A DNA stretch of 24,000 nucleotides from an uncultured Solirubrobacterales bacterium (GCA_963750365.1 CAVVQE010000001.1:463866-487865), one strand, 5' to 3'. Positions 15,435-23,732 are shown, counted from the first letter of the stretch. The notes: generated by a model from the sequence alone, not told the origin. A program made the numbers and translations.

Positions 15435-17363
15435 TCAGTACTCGCCGTCGTTGCGCGCGACCGTCTCGGGCTTTCGCCCGCAGGGGACCGGACTGACGGG
15501 GAGCCCGCTCTCGCCCGTTTCGGGCAGCCGCAGGCGGTAGCTGACCCCGCGCCGCAGGGGAGCGTGGCGGACGAACACCCCGCTCGCCGACGTGGCGAAC
15601 GCCTGCCGCGAATACGAGGCGCGCTTGCGTGCGCGTGCGCTGCTGGCGGTGGCGGCCTGGGTCCATACCGGGGCGGCGCCGACGCGCTGCTCCAGGATCA
15701 CGCGGTGAGCCGCCGACCCGGGCCGGACGTGCCCCCAGATCACGAGCCGGCGCTCGGTCCGGCTGCGTTTGGCGGACCGCCGCTTGCGCCCCTTCTTGGA
15801 CCGGCGCTTTGAGGACCGTCGCTTCGCCGCCGAGCGGCCGCGCACGCGCTTCTGCATCTTGCGGCCGCGGCGGCTCTTCGTGCGTGCTCCGCGCTTGTGC
15901 TTGCCGCTGCGGCGTTTGCCCCGGCGCTTGCCGCGGCGCTTGCGAGCCGGTCGCGCAGGACGGGTGGTCACACAGTCCACGAACAGCGCGAGCTTGAAGC
16001 TGGTGGCGGCCGGTTTGGGCGTTCCGTCCTCGAACAGCAGGCCGCTCTGGTAGTCGGCGTAGGGCCGGGCGCCGCGAGCGGCCTTCTCGGCGCTGACCAC
16101 CCCCAGGTCGCGGAGCAGGAACTGCGGCCAGCTGCGCACGCGCGGGTTCTTGTACGCCAGGTACTCGGCCCAGTTGAGAAAGCGCGCCTGCTGCTCCAGG
16201 CCGTAGGGCTTGTCGGGGTCGGGCGGGTTGGTCTCGTAGCCGAACTCGGTCAGATAGATGTTGGCCAGCCGCGGGCTTATCCGGCCCATGCCCGCGAGCC
16301 TGTCGAGCAGCTTGCTCAGGCGGTCCAGCGCGCCGATGCGGGCGGAGTCGGGGTTGCGGGGGTCCTGGAAGTCCGGGCGGTTGAGCAGCGAGTAGGGATG
16401 GTGGGCAAAGCCGTCGCCCTGGATCGGCCGGTAGCCCGCGCAGCGTGGCGCCGTGAGCGGGCGCAGCCGCTCGTCGACGCAGGCCAGCTCGCGGATGAAC
16501 TTCAGCGGCGGGATGCCGCTGGTGGTCTCCTTGGGGTTCTTGACCCCGAAGCTGGCCAGCCCGCCCACGAGCACCGTGCTGTCCGGCTGGAGCTGCTTGA
16601 TCAGGGGCTCGGATGCCTCGACCATGCGCCTGTACAGGTGGGGTGTGTTGGGCTCGAGCTGGCCGTTCGGTGCACGCGTGTACTGGGGCTGCAGGAAGCC
16701 GGGGTGGTTGGGCTCGTTCCAGATGGTCCACATGCTGACCTTGGGCAGCGGGCCGAGGGCTCCGGCCGGCGCGGGCGGCGGGGGTGCGGGCTGGCCGAGG
16801 GCTATGAGGGCGCCGAGCGGGCCCTCGAGGAGCTGTTGGTCGGGCTCACCGGCCGGCGTGGGCTCGGTATCGGCCACGGGCACGAAGTTGCCCGAGTAGC
16901 GCTTGACCACGGCCTCGGTGAACTGGGCGAAGGCGCCCGGATCGATGTCCCAGCGATGACGGCCGGGCGGGCCCTGCGGGTTGCCCGTGGTGGCCCAGCG
17001 CGGCGCCCAGAAGGCCAAGTCGATCATCACCGTCAGCCCGGCCTTGTTCGCGGCGATGACCGCGCGGTCCAGGCGACGCCAGTTCGCCCGCGGGTAGGCA
17101 TCGGGGTCGGTCAGCGCCAGCGCAGGGCGCTCGATGCTGTCGGCGTTGGGCGCGATGCTCGACCAGCCGGCGTTCAGGCGCACCCGGTCGACACCCAGCG
17201 CGCGCAGGTGCTGCATGCTCTGCGTGACCTGCTCGTCTGAGCGGAACAGCAGCTCGGCGTCGTCCTGCACGATCGTCTCGGGCGCCTCGCGCGCCTGGGC
17301 GGGCGCGGCCACGGCCAGGGACAGCAGGACAGCGGAGGTGAGGCGGAGGGCCAGCTGACGCAT
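15435..17363 (-). CDS. Secreted glycoside-hydrolase-like protein (clan GH-A TIM-barrel signatures) with a Pro-rich insert, a 72-aa polybasic insert and a C-terminal beta-rich domain
   Basis: Sec-type signal peptide MRQLALRLTSAVLLSLAVAAPAQA. Candidate acid/base motif MWTIWNEPNHP and nucleophile motif IYLTEFGYE, about 160 aa apart, as in GH5/GH39-like enzymes. G/C third-position bias holds throughout, including the basic segment. The family assignment is tentative. Confidence 0.6.
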   Translation of the reverse strand: MRQLALRLTSAVLLSLAVAAPAQAREAPETIVQDDAELLFRSDEQVTQSMQHLRALGVDRVRLNAGWSSIAPNADSIERPALALTDPDAYPRANWRRLDRAVIAANKAGLTVMIDLAFWAPRWATTGNPQGPPGRHRWDIDPGAFAQFTEAVVKRYSGNFVPVADTEPTPAGEPDQQLLEGPLGALIALGQPAPPPPAPAGALGPLPKVSMWTIWNEPNHPGFLQPQYTRAPNGQLEPNTPHLYRRMVEASEPLIKQLQPDSTVLVGGLASFGVKNPKETTSGIPPLKFIRELACVDERLRPLTAPRCAGYRPIQGDGFAHHPYSLLNRPDFQDPRNPDSARIGALDRLSKLLDRLAGMGRISPRLANIYLTEFGYETNPPDPDKPYGLEQQARFLNWAEYLAYKNPRVRSWPQFLLRDLGVVSAEKAARGARPYADYQSGLLFEDGTPKPAATSFKLALFVDCVTTRPARPARKRRGKRRGKRRSGKHKRGARTKSRRGRKMQKRVRGRSAAKRRSSKRRSKKGRKRRSAKRSRTERRLVIWGHVRPGSAAHRVILEQRVGAAPVWTQAATASSARARKRASYSRQAFATSASGVFVRHAPLRRGVSYRLRLPETGESGLPVSPVPCGRKPETVARNDGEY

Positions 17364-17443: not shown

Positions 17444-19087
17444 TCAGATGTCCAGATCAGGGGCCACGACGGGGAGCGTGACGGCCGTCGCGTGGGTGCC
17501 CTCGTGCAGCACCTCCATCCGCACCGCCCGCATCCGCTCGGCGGTTGCCAGCTCCTCGCCGGTGCCCAGGTTGCGCGCGTAGCGGGGATGGGCACCGCTC
17601 GAGATCTGCAGCCGGATCCGGTGCCCGGCCTTGAACCGCCGCGCCGTGGGCCAGAGGTCCAGCCCGACCGCGTGTACCCCTTCCTCGTCCGGGTCGAACG
17701 TGCCGGGCTCCACACGCGCGAGTACGTCGCAGACGTTCAGCGAGGTTCCCGAGGGCAGCACGTCGCAGAGCCGGGCGAAGACGTCGAAGTACGACCCGTC
17801 GGCGCGTACGTGCGCGACCGCCGACACCGGGCCGATCACGTCCAGGTCGCGCTCCAGCGGCTCGCTGGTGAACACCAGCACGTCGTCGCGCGCCTCTAGC
17901 TCGCGATTGTCGGCGACCGGCTGGCGCGCCAGCAGCGTCGGCCCGCCCAGCGACGGCGTCGGGTGGGCTGGGTCGTAGGTGTAGGCGCGGCCGCCCTCGT
18001 CAGGTCCCGGTCGCTCAGCCGTGAGCTGCCCTCCGGCGCGCGCATGAAGCACACGCGCCTGGGCCGGCGGCGGCCAGCTGTCCATGCTGAGCCACTCGCG
18101 CGCCCCGGCCAGCCAGATCCGTACGGGCGCAGAGTCGACCAGGCGGTGGTCGTCGAGCAGATGGGCGCGCAGCCACGCGATGCCCTCGCGGGCGCTGACC
18201 CGTGCCAGCTCGGGAGAGGTATGCGCCCACGGGCCGACCACCAGCTGAGGCGAGCGCCCCGCGCCCTGGAGCGCGACGAAGTCCTCGAGCATCCACGGCA
18301 GGAAGATGTCCGACCAGCCCCCCACGAGCTGCACCGGCGCGGTCACGTCGGCCACACCGGCGGAGTGGTCGCGGGCTGTCCAGTAGGGATCGTCGGCGGT
18401 CGTGTGGGCGAGCCAGTCGGCGTAGAAGGGCACCGAGTCGCCCGCCGCCAGCGCGTCCAGGCCGCCGACCGGGAGCTGGTCGATCACGCCGGGCAGCGCC
18501 CGCAGCCGTCGCACCATGTGCAGCGGCGCCCCGCGGCGCTCCTGCACCGCCATCATCGTGACCCACGACAGCCCCGTCTCGAGCGAGATGGCGCCGCTGC
18601 CCATGGCCTGGCCGTGGAAGTTGGACGCCGTGACAGACGGCGCCAGCGCGGCCAGCGCGTCCCCGGCGCCGCGGGCCACCGCCCACTGGGTCAGGCCCAG
18701 GTAGCTGGGGCCGGTCATGCCGATGCCGCCCTGATGCCACGGCTGCCCGGACAGCCACTCGATCGTGGCCAGCCCGTCGTCGCGCTCGTCGAAGGGGTCG
18801 AACGAGCCGCCCGAGCCGAACGTGCCGCGGACGCTCTGGACCACGGTCTGGAGCCCGCGCTCGGCCAGCAGTCGCCCGAACAGGAGTCCCACGGGGCCGC
18901 GCCGGCCGTACGGCGAGCGCACCAGCACCGTCGGCGAGGGCGCCTCGGGCTTGGGCGCGTAGCGGTCGGCCAGGAGCATCGCGCCATCGGGCATCGGCAC
19001 CTCCAGGTCGCGCTGGACCACCACGTCGCGGCTGAGCGGGCGCGGCAGGCCCATCGCGCGCCCTGCCGCTTCGCTGGCGATGGTCAT
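17444..19087 (-). CDS. CocE/NonD family hydrolase (S15 X-Pro dipeptidyl-peptidase-like)
   Basis: VPMPDGAMLLADRYAP...VLVRSPYGR..., the nucleophile motif IGMTGPSYLGLTQW (GxSYxG) and a C-terminal beta-sandwich region (RIRLQISSGAHPRYARN) are typical of the family. I prefer ATG 19087 to the track start at 19168. Confidence 0.85.
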   Translation of the reverse strand: MTIASEAAGRAMGLPRPLSRDVVVQRDLEVPMPDGAMLLADRYAPKPEAPSPTVLVRSPYGRRGPVGLLFGRLLAERGLQTVVQSVRGTFGSGGSFDPFDERDDGLATIEWLSGQPWHQGGIGMTGPSYLGLTQWAVARGAGDALAALAPSVTASNFHGQAMGSGAISLETGLSWVTMMAVQERRGAPLHMVRRLRALPGVIDQLPVGGLDALAAGDSVPFYADWLAHTTADDPYWTARDHSAGVADVTAPVQLVGGWSDIFLPWMLEDFVALQGAGRSPQLVVGPWAHTSPELARVSAREGIAWLRAHLLDDHRLVDSAPVRIWLAGAREWLSMDSWPPPAQARVLHARAGGQLTAERPGPDEGGRAYTYDPAHPTPSLGGPTLLARQPVADNRELEARDDVLVFTSEPLERDLDVIGPVSAVAHVRADGSYFDVFARLCDVLPSGTSLNVCDVLARVEPGTFDPDEEGVHAVGLDLWPTARRFKAGHRIRLQISSGAHPRYARNLGTGEELATAERMRAVRMEVLHEGTHATAVTLPVVAPDLDI

Positions 19088-19139
19088 CGCTCGTGATTGT
19101 GGCGGAGCGGGCGGAGGTGCACGGCGTAGAGTCGCTGCG

Positions 19140-19748
19140 ATGGGCCTGCTGGACGACCACGCCGCCATCCTCTGCGACCTGGACGGCGTCCTGGTGGACT
19201 CGGACGCCGCGATCGAGCGCGGCTACGACCAGTGGGCCGACGGCCACGGCCTGGACCGCGCGCTGGTGCGCTCGCTGTACCCCGGCACACCGGCCCGCCA
19301 GGTGGCCGAACAGGCCGCGCCGTGGCTGGACGCGGACGCCGAGGCCGAGCGCATCGACCGCATCCACCTGGCTCACGGCGACCACGTGCGGGCATTGGCC
19401 GGGGCCGCCGACCTGCTGGACGAGCCGCCCCTGCCGCTGGCCGTGGTGACCTCGTGCAGCCGGCAGCTGGCGGCCGCGCGCTTTCAGGCCTCGGGCCTGA
19501 GCGCTCCCGAGGTGGTCGTGACCGCCGACGACGTGGCGGTGGGAAAGCCCGATCCGGCCGCCTACCTGGCCGCGGCCCGCCGGCTCGGCGCCGGGCCCGG
19601 CGCCTGCATGGTCATCGAGGACGCGCCGGCCGGGGTGGCGGCCGGCAAGGCAGCCGGCATGACGGTGCTGGCGCTGACCACCACCCACGGCGCGGAGGAG
19701 CTGTCCGCGGCCGACCATCTGGCCGCCGACCTGACCGTGCTGGGCTAG
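19140..19748 (+). CDS. HAD-IA family hydrolase (phosphatase / beta-phosphoglucomutase-like)
   Basis: HAD motif I is ILCDLDGVLVDS, motif II VVTS, motif III GKPDP and motif IV VIEDAPAGVAAGKAAGM. Start at ATG 19140, in frame within track ORF 19080..19748. Confidence 0.85.
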   Translation: MGLLDDHAAILCDLDGVLVDSDAAIERGYDQWADGHGLDRALVRSLYPGTPARQVAEQAAPWLDADAEAERIDRIHLAHGDHVRALAGAADLLDEPPLPLAVVTSCSRQLAAARFQASGLSAPEVVVTADDVAVGKPDPAAYLAAARRLGAGPGACMVIEDAPAGVAAGKAAGMTVLALTTTHGAEELSAADHLAADLTVLG

Positions 19749-20683
19749 CCCTCCTGCTCCTTGGCCTCCTGCGCTGCCGCGCGCTTGGCCTCCCGGCGCG
19801 CCCGGCGGCCGCCCGGCATGCGCCCCGCCATGCTGCTCAGCGGGGCGGCGGCGGTGCTCAGCTCCTCCGCCGACTCCTGCAGGCTTGTCACGCTCTGGCT
19901 GAGCGTGTCCAGCGCCGGCTCCAGGCGGCCGAGCTGGCTGCCGATGGACTCCACCTGGTTCTCCACGGCCTGGACGCGACCCGGCAGCTGGGGCAGCCCG
20001 CGGGTGGACTCGGCCAGGCTCTCCAGCGCGCTGGCCACCGTGGCCAGGCGCGTCAGGGAGTCGCCGAGGGCGCCCAGGGTCCGCAGCGTCTCCTCGAGCG
20101 CGCCGAGGCGCTGCAGCGTCACGTCCAGGTCGGCCAGGCGCGAGAGCGTCTCGGACAGGTCACCCAGGTGTGCCACGGGGCCGTCCTCGGCCAGCAGCTG
20201 TTCGATGCTGCCTCCGGGCTCCAGCAGCAGGTGCAGCGTGCCGTCGGGCCTGACCAGCCGGTCGATCGTGCCGTCCACGACAAGCATCTGGTCGATCAGC
20301 CCGCCCTCCACGAACAGGCGCTCCAGCACACCCTGCTCCTCGAGCACGCGGTCCAGCGTTCCGCCCTCGGCGGTCAGACGGTCCAGCGCACCACCTTCGG
20401 CCAGCAGCCGGTCCAAGGCGCCCCCCCTCGCCAGGAGGCGATCCAGCGGACCGCCTTCGGCGAGCAGCCGGTCGGCCACGCCATCCTCGGCCAGCAACCG
20501 GTCAAGCGGGCCGCCGTTGGCCAGGGCGCGGCCCAGCGGCTGGTCGTCGGCGGTGAGCATGGACAGCTGCTCGAGCCGTGCCAGCGGGCCGTCGGGATCG
20601 CCGAGGCGGCTCAGGCCGACCACCGCGTCGGCGGTTGCGGTCGCGGCGCGGAGCGGCAACAGCGCGTACGACATCAGCCCCAT
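19745..20683 (-). CDS. Hypothetical protein built from tandem decapeptide repeats (consensus D-R-L-L-A-E-G-G-x-L) with a helical Leu-periodic C-terminal half and a basic tail
   Basis: The ATG at 20683 lies 11 nt after the oxidoreductase stop (20695). The longer track ORF (to 21034) would overlap that gene by 340 nt. The 312-aa protein has strong G/C third-position bias, and I recognise no family, signal peptide or TM segment. Confidence 0.65.
   Translation of the reverse strand: MGLMSYALLPLRAATATADAVVGLSRLGDPDGPLARLEQLSMLTADDQPLGRALANGGPLDRLLAEDGVADRLLAEGGPLDRLLARGGALDRLLAEGGALDRLTAEGGTLDRVLEEQGVLERLFVEGGLIDQMLVVDGTIDRLVRPDGTLHLLLEPGGSIEQLLAEDGPVAHLGDLSETLSRLADLDVTLQRLGALEETLRTLGALGDSLTRLATVASALESLAESTRGLPQLPGRVQAVENQVESIGSQLGRLEPALDTLSQSVTSLQESAEELSTAAAPLSSMAGRMPGGRRARREAKRAAAQEAKEQEG
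20174..20533 (-). repeat. Twelve tandem 30-nt coding repeats (10-aa units) inside the repeat-protein gene
   Basis: Units, residues 51-170: GRALANGGPL / DRLLAEDGVA / DRLLAEGGPL / DRLLARGGAL / DRLLAEGGAL / DRLTAEGGTL / DRVLEEQGVL / ERLFVEGGLI / DQMLVVDGTI / DRLVRPDGTL / HLLLEPGGSI / EQLLAEDGPV. The DNA copies differ by many synonymous changes. Degenerate units of the same period continue on both sides, roughly 19994-20593. Confidence 0.85.
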
Positions 20684-20694
20684 GAGGGCCGAGC

Positions 20695-21714
20695 CTATCC
20701 GGGCTGCAGCGAAACCACCTGGCCCGTTCGCGCGCTGCGCCGGGCTGCTGCGATCACCCGCACCACCGCGGCCCCCTCGCTGGCGGACACCGGCATCGGC
20801 CCGCCGTCGCGCAGCGCGTCGCGCACGCCCGCGTAGAAGTCGGCGTAGTCGCCGGCCGGGGTGGGGATCAGCTGCTCGCCGCCGGCCTCGGTGACCAGCC
20901 GCAGCGCCGGATCGGGCGCGTCCTCCCCGCGCAGGCGCAGCTCCTGCGGGTCCAGGCCGTGTGACTCCAGCAGGCCGCCCAGGCCGGTCACGCGAAAGCG
21001 CGGGCCGGGCTCGATGGCCACGAGGCTCATCCACAGCTGCACGGTCGGCCCGTCGCCGAAGCCCAGCTGCACGTAGCTGTCGTCGTCAACGCGGGCGCCC
21101 TGGCGGCGGGTGTCCAGCCTGGCGAACACGGTGTCCGGAGCACCGAACAGCACCAGCGCCTGGTCGATCAGGTGGCTGCCGAGGTCCCACAGCAGCCCGC
21201 CGCCGTCGTCATCGGCCGCGGACTCACGCCAGCGCTCGGCCTGGACCGCGGGCCGCCAGCGCTCCCAGCGCGCCTCCAGCCGCAGCACGGGCGCGATCCG
21301 CTCGGCCAGCTCGCGCACGGCCAGGAAGTCGCCGTCCCAGCGGCGGTTGTGGAACACGGCCAGCGCCACGCCCGTCTCGGCGCTGAGCGCCACCAGCCGT
21401 TCGGCGTCCTGCTCGGCCACCGCCAGCGGCTTGTCGACCACCACCGGCAGGCCCGCCCGCAGCGAGCGCTCGGCCAGCTCGGCGTGGGCGCGGTTGGGAG
21501 CGGCCACCACCACCAGGTCGAAGCCGGCGGGGTCGGCCCAGATGGCGTCGGCGCCGTCCAGCACCGCGGCGCCCGGATGGTCGCGCGCCACGGCCGCGCG
21601 CCGGGTCGGGTCGGAGGTGACCACGGCGGCCAGCTCCATGCCCTCGGTGAGGGCGACCAGCGGGGCGTGCAGCCCGGCGCCGGCCGGGCCGTAGCCCACC
21701 AGCGCCGTGCGCAC
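20695..21714 (-). CDS. Gfo/Idh/MocA family NAD(P)-dependent oxidoreductase
   Basis: N-terminal Rossmann motif (V/M)RTALVGYGPAGAGLHAPLV, then AAPNRAHAELAERSLRAGLPVVVDKPLA, FHNRRWDGDF and the C-terminal alpha/beta domain. GTG 21714 is the likely start. In the track it is fused in frame to the permease N-terminus as a 753-aa ORF. Confidence 0.85.
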   Translation of the reverse strand: MRTALVGYGPAGAGLHAPLVALTEGMELAAVVTSDPTRRAAVARDHPGAAVLDGADAIWADPAGFDLVVVAAPNRAHAELAERSLRAGLPVVVDKPLAVAEQDAERLVALSAETGVALAVFHNRRWDGDFLAVRELAERIAPVLRLEARWERWRPAVQAERWRESAADDDGGGLLWDLGSHLIDQALVLFGAPDTVFARLDTRRQGARVDDDSYVQLGFGDGPTVQLWMSLVAIEPGPRFRVTGLGGLLESHGLDPQELRLRGEDAPDPALRLVTEAGGEQLIPTPAGDYADFYAGVRDALRDGGPMPVSASEGAAVVRVIAAARRSARTGQVVSLQPG

Positions 21715-21743
21715 GCCGCCGTGCTCGGCCCCTTGTGGTGTGG

Positions 21744-22956
21744 TCAGATTCTGCCTTCCGCCTGCCGTTGCCGGCGGGCCAGGGCGTCGACCACGACCGC
21801 GGCCAGCAGCACGCCGCCGGTGACCATGAACTTGACCGACGACTCCAGCGCCAGCAGGTCCATGCCGTTCGAGATCGAGCCGATGACCAGCGCGCCCAGC
21901 AGCGCCGACCACACCGAGCCGCGGCCGCCGAACAGGCTGGTGCCCGCGATGACGGGCCCGGCGATGGACAGCAGCAGCAGGTCCGAGCCGCCCGACGACT
22001 GGTTGACCGCCAGCAGCCGCGACGCGGCCAGGATGCCGCCGATGGCGGCCATGGCCCCTGCGATCGAGAACACGATCACGCGGATGCGGTTCACGTTGAT
22101 GCCCGCACGGCGGGCTGCCTCGGCGTTGCCGCCGACCGCGAACACGTGGCGGCCGAAGCGGGTGCGCGAGACCAGGTATTGCATTCCCAGCACGAAGCCC
22201 ATCAGGATCAGCACCGCCAGCGGCAGCCCGCGGTCGGAGTTGAAGATGGACACGGCCGCAAGCAGCGCCGCCGCCAGCACCACGATGCGAACCACCACGG
22301 GCGCGATCGCCTGGTCGGCCAGTCCCGCCTTCATGCGCGAGCGCAGGCCCCATAACGCGATCCCCGCGTAGCCCAGGATGGCCAGCACCGCCAGGCCCCA
22401 GCCGGTGGCGTCGTCGTAGAACGTGCCCGCCAGCCCGGTGATCTTGCCGTTGTTGATGTTCAGCGTGCCCGTGTCGCCCAGCACGTAGAGCAGCGCGCCC
22501 TGCCACGCCAGCAGGCCCGCCAGCGTGACCACGAACGAGGGCACGCCGAAGCCCGAGAAGAACATGCCCTGGACCACGCCCGACCGCAGCTCCGGCCGCC
22601 ACGCCGGCGGCGATGGCCAGGTACGGGTCCCAGCCGTGCTTGACGTTCAGCACGCCCATGATGGCCGCGCACAGGCCGCTGACCGCGCCGACCGACAGGT
22701 CGATCTCGCCAAGCAGCAGCACGTACACGATGCCCACGCTGATCAGGCCCACCGCCGTGATCTGCAGCATCAGGTTGGTCAGGTTGGCGGCGGTCAGGAA
22801 GTTGCTGTCCTGGGACTGGAAGATGGCCCAGATGACCACCAGCCCGAAGATCACCCGCACCGAGGCCAGGTCGCCCTGGACGACGCGCCGCAGGTAGCCC
22901 TCGCGGGCCTTGCCCTCGGTCTCCTCGCTCGTGGCTGTCGCACCCGCGGCGCTCAT
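21744..22956 (-). pseudogene. Sugar ABC transporter permease (CUT2, XylH-like), interrupted by an apparent +1 frameshift near 22575-22584
   Basis: The N-terminal 126 aa (ATG 22956) form a typical CUT2 permease start, ending ...NLTNLMLQITAVGLISVGIVYVLLLGEIDLSVGAVSGLCAAIMGVLN...LAIAAGVAAGAAVG. The continuation VVQGMFFSGFGVPSFVVTLAGLLAWQG... through to the stop at 21744 lies in the +1 frame (track ORF 21744..22577). Together they give about 404 aa, the normal size. Removing one nucleotide from GTCGGGCGTGGTC would restore AAVGVVQGMFF. Confidence 0.8.
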
Positions 22957-23732
22957 GACTTCGCCCCCTTCCCGTTCTCGTCACCGATGCCGGTGATGGC
23001 CCCGACCACCTGCTCACGGGTCACGTCGGCGACCTTGTAGTCGGCCGCCTCGCGGCCCAGGCGAAGGACCACGATCCGGTCCGCCACCTCGAACACGTCG
23101 GCCAGGTTGTGGCTGATCACGATCACCCCGAGCCCGCGCTCGCGCAATCGCTTGATCAGCGCCAGCACCTGGGCCGTCTGGGGCACGCCCAGCGCGGCTG
23201 TCGGCTCGTCGAGCATGACCAGCTTCGGGTCGCCGAGCAGCGACCGGGCCACCGCCACCTGCTGGCGCTGGCCGCCGGACATGGAGCCCACCTCCGAGCG
23301 CACGCTGGGAATCGTGACCGCCAGGTTCTCCAGCAGCTGGTGGGAGCGATGCTCCATGTTGACCTCGTCCAGGCGGTGGGTGGCCCGCCCGATCCCCGAG
23401 GACATCTCCTCGCGGCCGAGGAACAGGTTGGCCACCACGTCCAGGTTGTCGCACAGCGCCAGGTCCTGGTAGACGGTCGCGATGCCCAGGGCGCTTGCCT
23501 GCTGGGGGCTCGTGATCGAGACCTTCTGGCCGTCGACCGAGAACTCCCCCCCGTCGGGCGAGTGGATGCCGGCGATGGTCTTGACCAGCGTGGACTTGCC
23601 GGCGCCGTTGTCGCCCACCAGGGCGACGACCTCGCCCCGGTGCACGTCCAGGTCGACTCCGGCGAGTGCCTGCACCGCGCCAAACCGCTTCGTCACCCCC
23701 TTCAGCGAGAGCAGTGCACTGTCGGAACTCAT
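22953..23732 (-). CDS. Sugar ABC transporter ATP-binding protein (single NBD)
   Basis: Walker A GDNGAGKST, Q-loop VYQD, signature MSGGQRQQV, Walker B LVMLDEPTAAL and H-loop ISHN. Its stop overlaps the permease start (ATGA at 22953-22956). Confidence 0.9.
   Translation of the reverse strand: MSSDSALLSLKGVTKRFGAVQALAGVDLDVHRGEVVALVGDNGAGKSTLVKTIAGIHSPDGGEFSVDGQKVSITSPQQASALGIATVYQDLALCDNLDVVANLFLGREEMSSGIGRATHRLDEVNMEHRSHQLLENLAVTIPSVRSEVGSMSGGQRQQVAVARSLLGDPKLVMLDEPTAALGVPQTAQVLALIKRLRERGLGVIVISHNLADVFEVADRIVVLRLGREAADYKVADVTREQVVGAITGIGDENGKGAKS

Follow-up and report, generated by a model that had tools for sequence, protein, structure and literature searches.

Sequence similarity places a decapeptide-repeat protein of an uncultured Solirubrobacterales bacterium in an unnamed actinobacterial family

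What does a protein built largely of tandem decapeptides do, and does it belong to the sugar-uptake operon at whose end its gene lies? The question is raised by a stretch of 24,000 nucleotides from an uncultured Solirubrobacterales bacterium (GCA_963750365.1 CAVVQE010000001.1:463866-487865; hereafter the window, meaning this whole stretch), in which an open reading frame (ORF) at 19745..20683 on the minus strand encodes the repeat protein P0001. A prediction made from the sequence alone (the original prediction) had described the product as an unrecognised protein and an odd partner for a CUT2 sugar operon. Sequence comparison assigns the gene, as a divergent member, to an unnamed actinobacterial family that already includes Rv0756c of Mycobacterium tuberculosis. 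Structural modelling suggests that its product may be a scaffold of helical repeats that varies in length, has distinct modules at its ends and lacks enzymatic activity, a reading to which we assign a probability of about 0.5.

The repeat gene and its homologues

Translation of the minus strand yielded the predicted ORF in full (312 amino acids plus a stop codon), and its start ATG at 20683 agrees with the N-termini of homologues ('MGL...LLPxR'). The proportion of guanine plus cytosine (GC) at codon positions 1, 2 and 3 is 0.81, 0.49 and 0.93, which is the coding pattern expected in DNA of 71% GC, and the ratio of nonsynonymous to synonymous substitution rates (dN/dS) is 0.02–0.13 across eight close orthologue pairs of the family. 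This coding bias, together with the homologues and the purifying selection, identifies the repeat gene as a real protein-coding gene. The original prediction had named a non-coding shadow of the opposite strand as the reading that would undo it, and such a shadow, or an assembly artefact, might be suspected where several frames hold long ORFs in 71% GC DNA and where apparent frame breaks occur at other places in the window assembly. Conservation and selection refute it, and we give it practically no weight: the codon-position GC is typical of a coding frame, homologues with conserved non-repeat termini occur in two classes of Actinomycetota, dN/dS lies well below 1, and the ORFs on the opposite strand have no family matches.

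The protein is also no orphan, a point that the original prediction had missed, but falls in a large family of hypothetical proteins. A word-indexed search returned 59 homologues (E = 4e-71 to 1e-15), every one labelled 'hypothetical', and an exhaustive profile search returned 584 representatives of clusters formed at 50% identity at E <= 1e-3, with 223 at E <= 1e-10. Proteins of 1000–3463 amino acids topped the profile search and were rejected as members because their other 10-residue repeats match on period and composition only; they are eukaryote-type proteins with mucin, VWD, Ig, ankyrin and EPTP domains. True members are mostly 200–330 amino acids long and, in an alignment of 53 of them, share an architecture of an N-terminal LPxR helix, usually a GPxRRPGGYxER segment, a 'DDRPLGRAL' lead-in, a variable number of decapeptides and a C-terminal module ending in PLxxxAxRxPGGRRR. 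The window protein carries the array, the LPxR helix and the PLxxxAxRxP motif with its basic end, and its similarity to the family runs over the full length. In BLASTP, the repeats aligned with the Mycobacterium uberis member at E = 2e-23 and the non-repeat C-terminus at E = 6e-14, and the homologue in a genome of the same genus (G012) is 62% identical to the window protein, with gaps of 33, 10, 10 and 13 amino acids.

Named hosts comprise Nocardioides, Marmoricola, Solicola, Tomitella, Speluncibacter, Rhodococcus, Hoyosella, Gordonia, Mycolicibacterium, Mycobacteroides and Mycobacterium. Matches were found in 111 of 151 sampled Mycobacteriales genomes (the GTDB family containing a Mycobacteriaceae metagenome-assembled genome), and the family is also common in Nocardioidaceae. 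It is rare in the window's own class, where 5 of 301 genomes have a match at E <= 1e-10; in the window's own genus 4 of 24 do.

Some Mycobacteriales genomes hold a second copy, such as the short protein of 183 amino acids at locus L098 (G042:C1:811634-811978), and on contigs G044:C15 and G077:C164 two family copies lie about 4 kb apart.

The decapeptide array

Twelve consecutive canonical decapeptides (DRLLAEGGxL) occupy residues 51–170 (20174..20533, minus strand), the extent first proposed, with which both a unit table and autocorrelation agree. Unit position 8 is an invariant Gly in all twelve units, while position 1 is D or E, position 2 R or Q, positions 3 and 4 L, and position 10 L, I or V; across residues 41–175, identity autocorrelation reaches 0.49 at lags of 10, 20 and 30 residues, compared with 0.01–0.15 at other lags. 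Because 51% of the residues that do not differ from unit to unit are encoded by different codons, and because the periods of 30, 60 and 90 nucleotides detected by Tandem Repeats Finder at 20301–20539 match at only 65–75%, the repeat is old and maintained at the protein level, as had been suggested from the synonymous differences between copies. The original prediction had further traced the period in degenerate form from about residue 31 to residue 230. The forward part of this extension stands, as six decads without Gly-Gly at residues 171–230 (19994..20173, minus strand), which have Leu at unit positions 3, 6 and 10 and an identity of 0.22 at lag 10; back to residue 31, however, only two loose units were found. 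In the alignment (columns 310–385), the degenerate decads form an insertion of about 70 amino acids that is specific to the subfamily of the window protein.

The same periodicity holds across the family. Among 1508 units from 145 family proteins, 992 successive spacings are exactly 10 residues, and at the unit positions that the search pattern left free (1, 2, 5 and 7) the composition is still skewed: position 1 is D in 55% of units and E in 25%, position 2 is R in 58%, position 5 is A in 45%, and position 7 is G in 42% and D in 25%. The family-wide consensus, [DE]-[RQK]-L-[LT]-A-[EP]-[GD]-G-x-[LVI], is also that of the window array. By a crude count, members have 3 to 17 units, and both gaps internal to the comparison with the G012 homologue are exactly 10 amino acids long; array length thus appears, from these alignments, to change in whole 10-residue steps.

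A possible remote analogue of the decapeptide repeat is seen in P0118, a protein of 1014 amino acids in which hundreds of residues of degenerate repeats of about 10–11 residues ('V-[LF]-[DE]-[RK]-[IL]-[LVF]-x-D') are combined with a C-terminal FkbM methyltransferase domain.

Comparison with known repeat classes

The decapeptide-repeat type matches no described repeat class. The window protein had no match above curated thresholds in Pfam, NCBIfam, PHROGs, PADLOC or PDB sequences, and none of the 53 aligned members matched a Pfam family at E <= 0.01; weak Zn_ribbon_Com matches in 14 members lie on the repeat and far under the cut-off. Pentapeptide, hexapeptide, RTX, TPR, HEAT and LEA families were absent from the Pfam matches of the window protein at E <= 1 and from those of the 53 members at E <= 0.01. 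Searches of Pfam, NCBIfam and PDB sequences and of structures with Foldseek were all empty, in agreement with the earlier view that no known class fits. Pfam does hold a 'Decapeptide repeat region' (PF25296), likewise a 10-residue tandem repeat, but neither the window protein nor the 53 members matched it at E <= 0.01, and it appeared only below threshold in an unrelated protein of 1399 amino acids. A search of the literature on a 'decapeptide repeat' in Actinobacteria or Mycobacterium found nothing.

Likenesses to established classes are those of layout. TPR, HEAT, PPR, Sel1 and ankyrin solenoids are tandem helical repeats that stack as elongated non-enzymatic scaffolds, as is predicted for the window protein, and repeat number differs between orthologues in alpha-helical solenoids as it does in this family. 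Their units, however, are 33–42 residues long with two or more helices, whereas the window unit has 10 residues and a single predicted helix of 6, and neither a sequence match nor a Foldseek match links the two. The pentapeptide A(D/N)LXX repeat, the hexapeptide left-handed beta-helix and the RTX nonapeptide repeat (GGxGxDxUx) share with the window array a very short period, an invariant turn Gly and a hydrophobic ladder, and RTX shares in addition a Gly-Gly turn with an acidic residue close by; but these classes form beta structures and have Pfam models of their own, none of which matched, and the Leu pattern of the window protein (i, i+3, i+4) and the AlphaFold2 models point to helices. The window protein also differs from RTX-type short solenoids in having no secretion context.

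Another reading is that the protein is a conditionally folded stress protectant of the LEA or hydrophilin type, or an RTX-like cation-binding repeat, with repeats that are disordered in solution and become helical upon drying or upon binding membrane or metal. Tandem short amphipathic repeats, a Gly content of 12% (17% in the array), an isoelectric point (pI) of 4.5, soil-dwelling hosts, acidic residues flanking each turn (E-G-G-x-L-D) and the tendency of predictors to over-predict folds for short repeats would all suit it. We nevertheless consider it very unlikely, in view of a Leu content of 20% that makes the protein far more hydrophobic than hydrophilins, strong purifying selection at specific positions, and the absence of any LEA or RTX family match, signal peptide or secretion context.

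Predicted structure and proposed role

AlphaFold2, run for the window protein with a 53-sequence alignment, predicted each decapeptide as a 6-residue helix and a 4-residue turn, with a mean predicted local distance difference test score (pLDDT) of 79, values above 90 at residues 40–110 and a predicted template modelling score (pTM) of 0.34. A second run, for the Rhodococcus aerolatus member P0032 with a different alignment, gave the same unit structure (pLDDT 73, pTM 0.26), so that short helices broken at Gly-Gly, as originally envisaged, appear in both models. Foldseek found no PDB chain at E <= 10 for either. The helix prediction gains weight because Leu recurs at i, i+3 and i+4, Pro is frequent at the helix start and the turn Gly is invariant.

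The array is flanked by distinct modules. Residues 1–25 (20609..20683, minus strand) form an N-terminal hydrophobic region, modelled as helices at residues 3–7 and 9–25, with near-invariant Pro10 and Arg12 (LPxR) that are present in the window protein and in at least 90% of the 53 members. Its Kyte-Doolittle mean over 19 residues is 1.0–1.8 across members, borderline for a membrane helix, and it is the most hydrophobic segment in all members checked but P0036, where the most hydrophobic helix lies behind a longer N-terminal extension. The lead-in at residues 26–50 (20534..20608, minus strand) carries the conserved 'DDxPLGRAL' motif, and the window protein is without the 33-residue 'GPxRRPGGYxER...' segment found in most members. 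After the array, AlphaFold2 places helices at residues 173–227, 234–288 and 292–311. The first spans the degenerate decads; the second lies in residues 231–290 (19814..19993, minus strand), which end in PLxxxAxRxP, the most conserved motif of the family, with Pro281 and Pro290 invariant and R288 present in at least 90% of the 53 members. The third is the basic tail GGRRARREAKRAAAQEAKEQEG at residues 291–312 (19748..19813, minus strand), whose GGRRR is conserved in the family while the remainder is lineage-specific. A helical segment and then a basic tail had been described behind the decads; the tail is present and the second long helix is predicted. With a pI of 10.8, against 4.3–4.5 for the remainder, the tail is the sole basic part of a protein that has no Cys or Trp and in which no catalytic motif was seen.

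From these features we infer the fold, the cell location and the scaffold role. Each decapeptide would contribute a single short amphipathic helix (x-L-D-R-L-L-A) that ends in an E-G-G turn, and successive helices would stack through a Leu ladder at unit positions 10, 3 and 4 into an elongated helical solenoid. The protein would be tethered or buried at one end through its N-terminal hydrophobic helix (LPxR), at the other end the conserved C-terminal helical module ending in PLxxLAxRxPGGRRR would bind a partner or an anionic surface, and the whole would serve as a scaffold, spacer or adaptor, probably near the membrane.

Four considerations weigh against this reading. The low pTM of both models leaves the global shape undefined. 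Confident AlphaFold2 helices are weak evidence alone, since random short repeats also score high (about 17% of random 10-residue repeats receive a pLDDT above 90 from structure predictors; bioRxiv 10.64898/2025.12.04.691947). Membrane anchoring is uncertain, given that the N-terminal helix is of borderline hydrophobicity and carries Arg12. Finally, a local link to the sugar operon may exist in the window genome alone, in which the genes are spaced by 11 nucleotides with no terminator between them.

The long helices behind the array raise an alternative, that the protein is a homo-oligomeric fibre in which chains wind together around Leu 10, 3 and 4 as a shared core interrupted at Gly-Gly, with the degenerate decads, in which Leu is spaced 3-4-3, forming an overwound coiled coil; cytoskeletal or polar scaffolds and regularly interrupted coiled coils would be the comparison. 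The 3-4-3 spacing can be read directly in the sequence, residues 171–288 are predicted as two helices of about 55 residues, and the only sub-threshold matches are of coiled-coil type, drawn weakly by residues 175–290 (SpiroCoCo, SMC and designed antiparallel coiled coils); a low pTM would also be expected of a chain that folds only on assembly. The actinobacterial coiled-coil scaffolds DivIVA/Wag31, FilP and Scy, and HbhA-like proteins, may resemble the window protein in a long helical C-terminal part, a basic tail and possible assembly near the membrane, but no sequence similarity to them was detected and they are without Gly-Gly-interrupted decapeptides. We regard the fibre as possible yet unlikely, because most members are without the long helical insertion and have a C-terminal module of only about 50 amino acids, and because Gly-Gly, along with the Pro often present at unit position 9, interrupts the helix at 10-residue intervals.

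A more ambitious form of the scaffold reading, which we put forward only tentatively, would hold that the array represents a type of helical solenoid not described before, whose helical repeat unit would be the shortest known, that the family consists of conserved actinobacterial scaffolds tuned in length by 10-residue steps, and that mycobacterial members, Rv0756c among them, work with PhoPR or the cell envelope. With 584 cluster representatives the family is large; it occurs in about three-quarters of the Mycobacteriales genomes sampled, is subject to strong purifying selection and has no domain model. Were the repeat fold defined, helical repeats of short period would gain a new class, and thousands of 'hypothetical proteins' would be annotated by a phenotype in M. 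smegmatis or Nocardioides.

Rv0756c and the PhoPR locus

One member of the family adjoins phoPR, the principal regulator of virulence in M. tuberculosis, and its protein product has been detected. In M. tuberculosis CAS/NITR204, the member has 238 amino acids and is divergent from an OmpR-type response regulator, beyond which follow a sensor kinase, an HIT gene, adh, a ferredoxin gene and a P450 gene; on its other side lie tRNA-Thr, a transposase fragment and a PPE-sized gene. From the H37Rv gene order, we take this member to be Rv0756c. Such an rv0755A-thrV-rv0756c arrangement has been described (PMC4895118), and the CAS/NITR204 locus agrees with it. None of the papers found assigns a function to Rv0756c, and the literature yielded nothing relevant for presumed locus tags of the M. 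smegmatis, M. abscessus, M. marinum and M. leprae orthologues; the protein has been detected by proteomics (PMC13090312), and PhoP binds the shared Rv0756c-phoP intergenic region in chromatin immunoprecipitation sequencing (ChIP-seq; PMC4038636).

Rv0756c and its orthologues share with the window protein the LPxR helix, the DDxPLGRA lead-in, the GGxLDRLL array, and PLxxxAxRxP with a basic tail. The window protein, in another class of Actinomycetota than the Rv0756c hosts, is longer (312 against about 240 amino acids), adds the insertion of about 70 amino acids that is modelled as a long helix, is without the 33-residue GPxRRPGGY segment, has a different tail and is not beside phoPR. A PhoP orthologue (73–93% identical to M. 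tuberculosis PhoP) directly adjoins the gene in at least nine Mycobacteriales loci, and in others the HIT gene of the phoP block adjoins it. The window gene is not divergent from phoP, and phoP adjacency is lineage-specific, not family-defining.

These neighbours suggest another role, as an accessory or regulatory partner of PhoPR or of cell-envelope biogenesis, in which case the window copy would be a displaced orthologue with the same role. Beyond the phoP and HIT adjacencies and the ChIP-seq binding, this proposal could draw on the Nocardioidaceae, where the gene lies beside PorA, acyltransferase-3 and AftD envelope genes. We consider it improbable. Loss of phoP function alters the Rv0756c transcript by no more than 1.24-fold (phoP mutant; PMC4038636), synteny within related lineages may be simply inherited, the neighbours differ between the two large clades, and the window genome, like other loci, shows neither neighbourhood.

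Gene neighbourhood

In the window, the repeat gene starts 11 nucleotides after the stop of a GFO/IDH/MocA oxidoreductase gene (20695..21762, minus strand; Pfam PF01408, PF02894 and PF22725), as the original prediction had it, and this oxidoreductase gene is the last recognisable gene of a sugar-uptake cluster of the ATP-binding cassette (ABC) type. Further upstream, Pfam matches identify a BPD_transp_2 sugar permease (21744-22956, minus strand), split by a frame break, and an ABC ATPase (22953-23732). A consensus scan around the repeat gene found no promoter-like or terminator-like site and, given also the 11-nucleotide spacing, the repeat gene is probably co-transcribed with the sugar-uptake genes in the window genome. 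The adjacency is nonetheless best read as incidental and not as a functional tie, because neighbours vary by lineage and because in the same-genus genome G012 the HAD and S15 genes are retained downstream, but the upstream side holds tRNA-Ser and a serine recombinase gene instead of a sugar operon. No sugar transporter neighbourhood was seen among about 90 homologue loci inspected. The neighbourhood that had made the gene an 'odd partner' is not conserved, and for the window a misleading operon inference is removed.

Downstream of the repeat gene, a convergent HAD-family hydrolase gene (19080..19748, plus strand; Pfam PF13419 and PF00702) overlaps its stop by 4 nucleotides, and an S15 peptidase gene (17444-19168; Pfam) lies beyond. 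In Nocardioidaceae, the repeat gene is flanked on one side by rpsA and a kinase-like gene and on the other by a gene for a class I S-adenosylmethionine (SAM) methyltransferase, which follows it by 5 nucleotides in loci L010/L011 (6767-7564) and directly adjoins it in 31 other Nocardioidaceae loci. An unknown protein of 600–800 amino acids is also encoded near these loci and, together with PorA, acyltransferase-3 and AftD, makes up a cell-envelope neighbourhood. A methyltransferase link was considered from this adjacency and from P0244 (Mycolicibacterium poriferae, 350 amino acids), in which a truncated cyclopropane-fatty-acid-synthase-like methyltransferase is fused to the last repeats and the C-terminus of the family, and was set aside: the chimera is a single record joined at a shared 'KPGG/VVDRL' ('PGG') motif, and is thus probably a deletion or an assembly artefact.

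Three minor observations concern the loci themselves. On contig G012:C90 (L002 1-909), the homologue is directly preceded by tRNA-Ser(GCT) and by the 3' end of a gene for a large serine recombinase; replacement or displacement of the upstream region by an integrative element is possible. The break in the window's permease gene is at 22572-22584, with the N-terminal 126 amino acids in the frame of a 753-residue ORF and the C-terminal 277 in another, and represents a frameshift or a long-read sequencing error. On the minus strand at 15438-17363, the window also holds an ORF of 642 amino acids without a Pfam match at E <= 1e-5.

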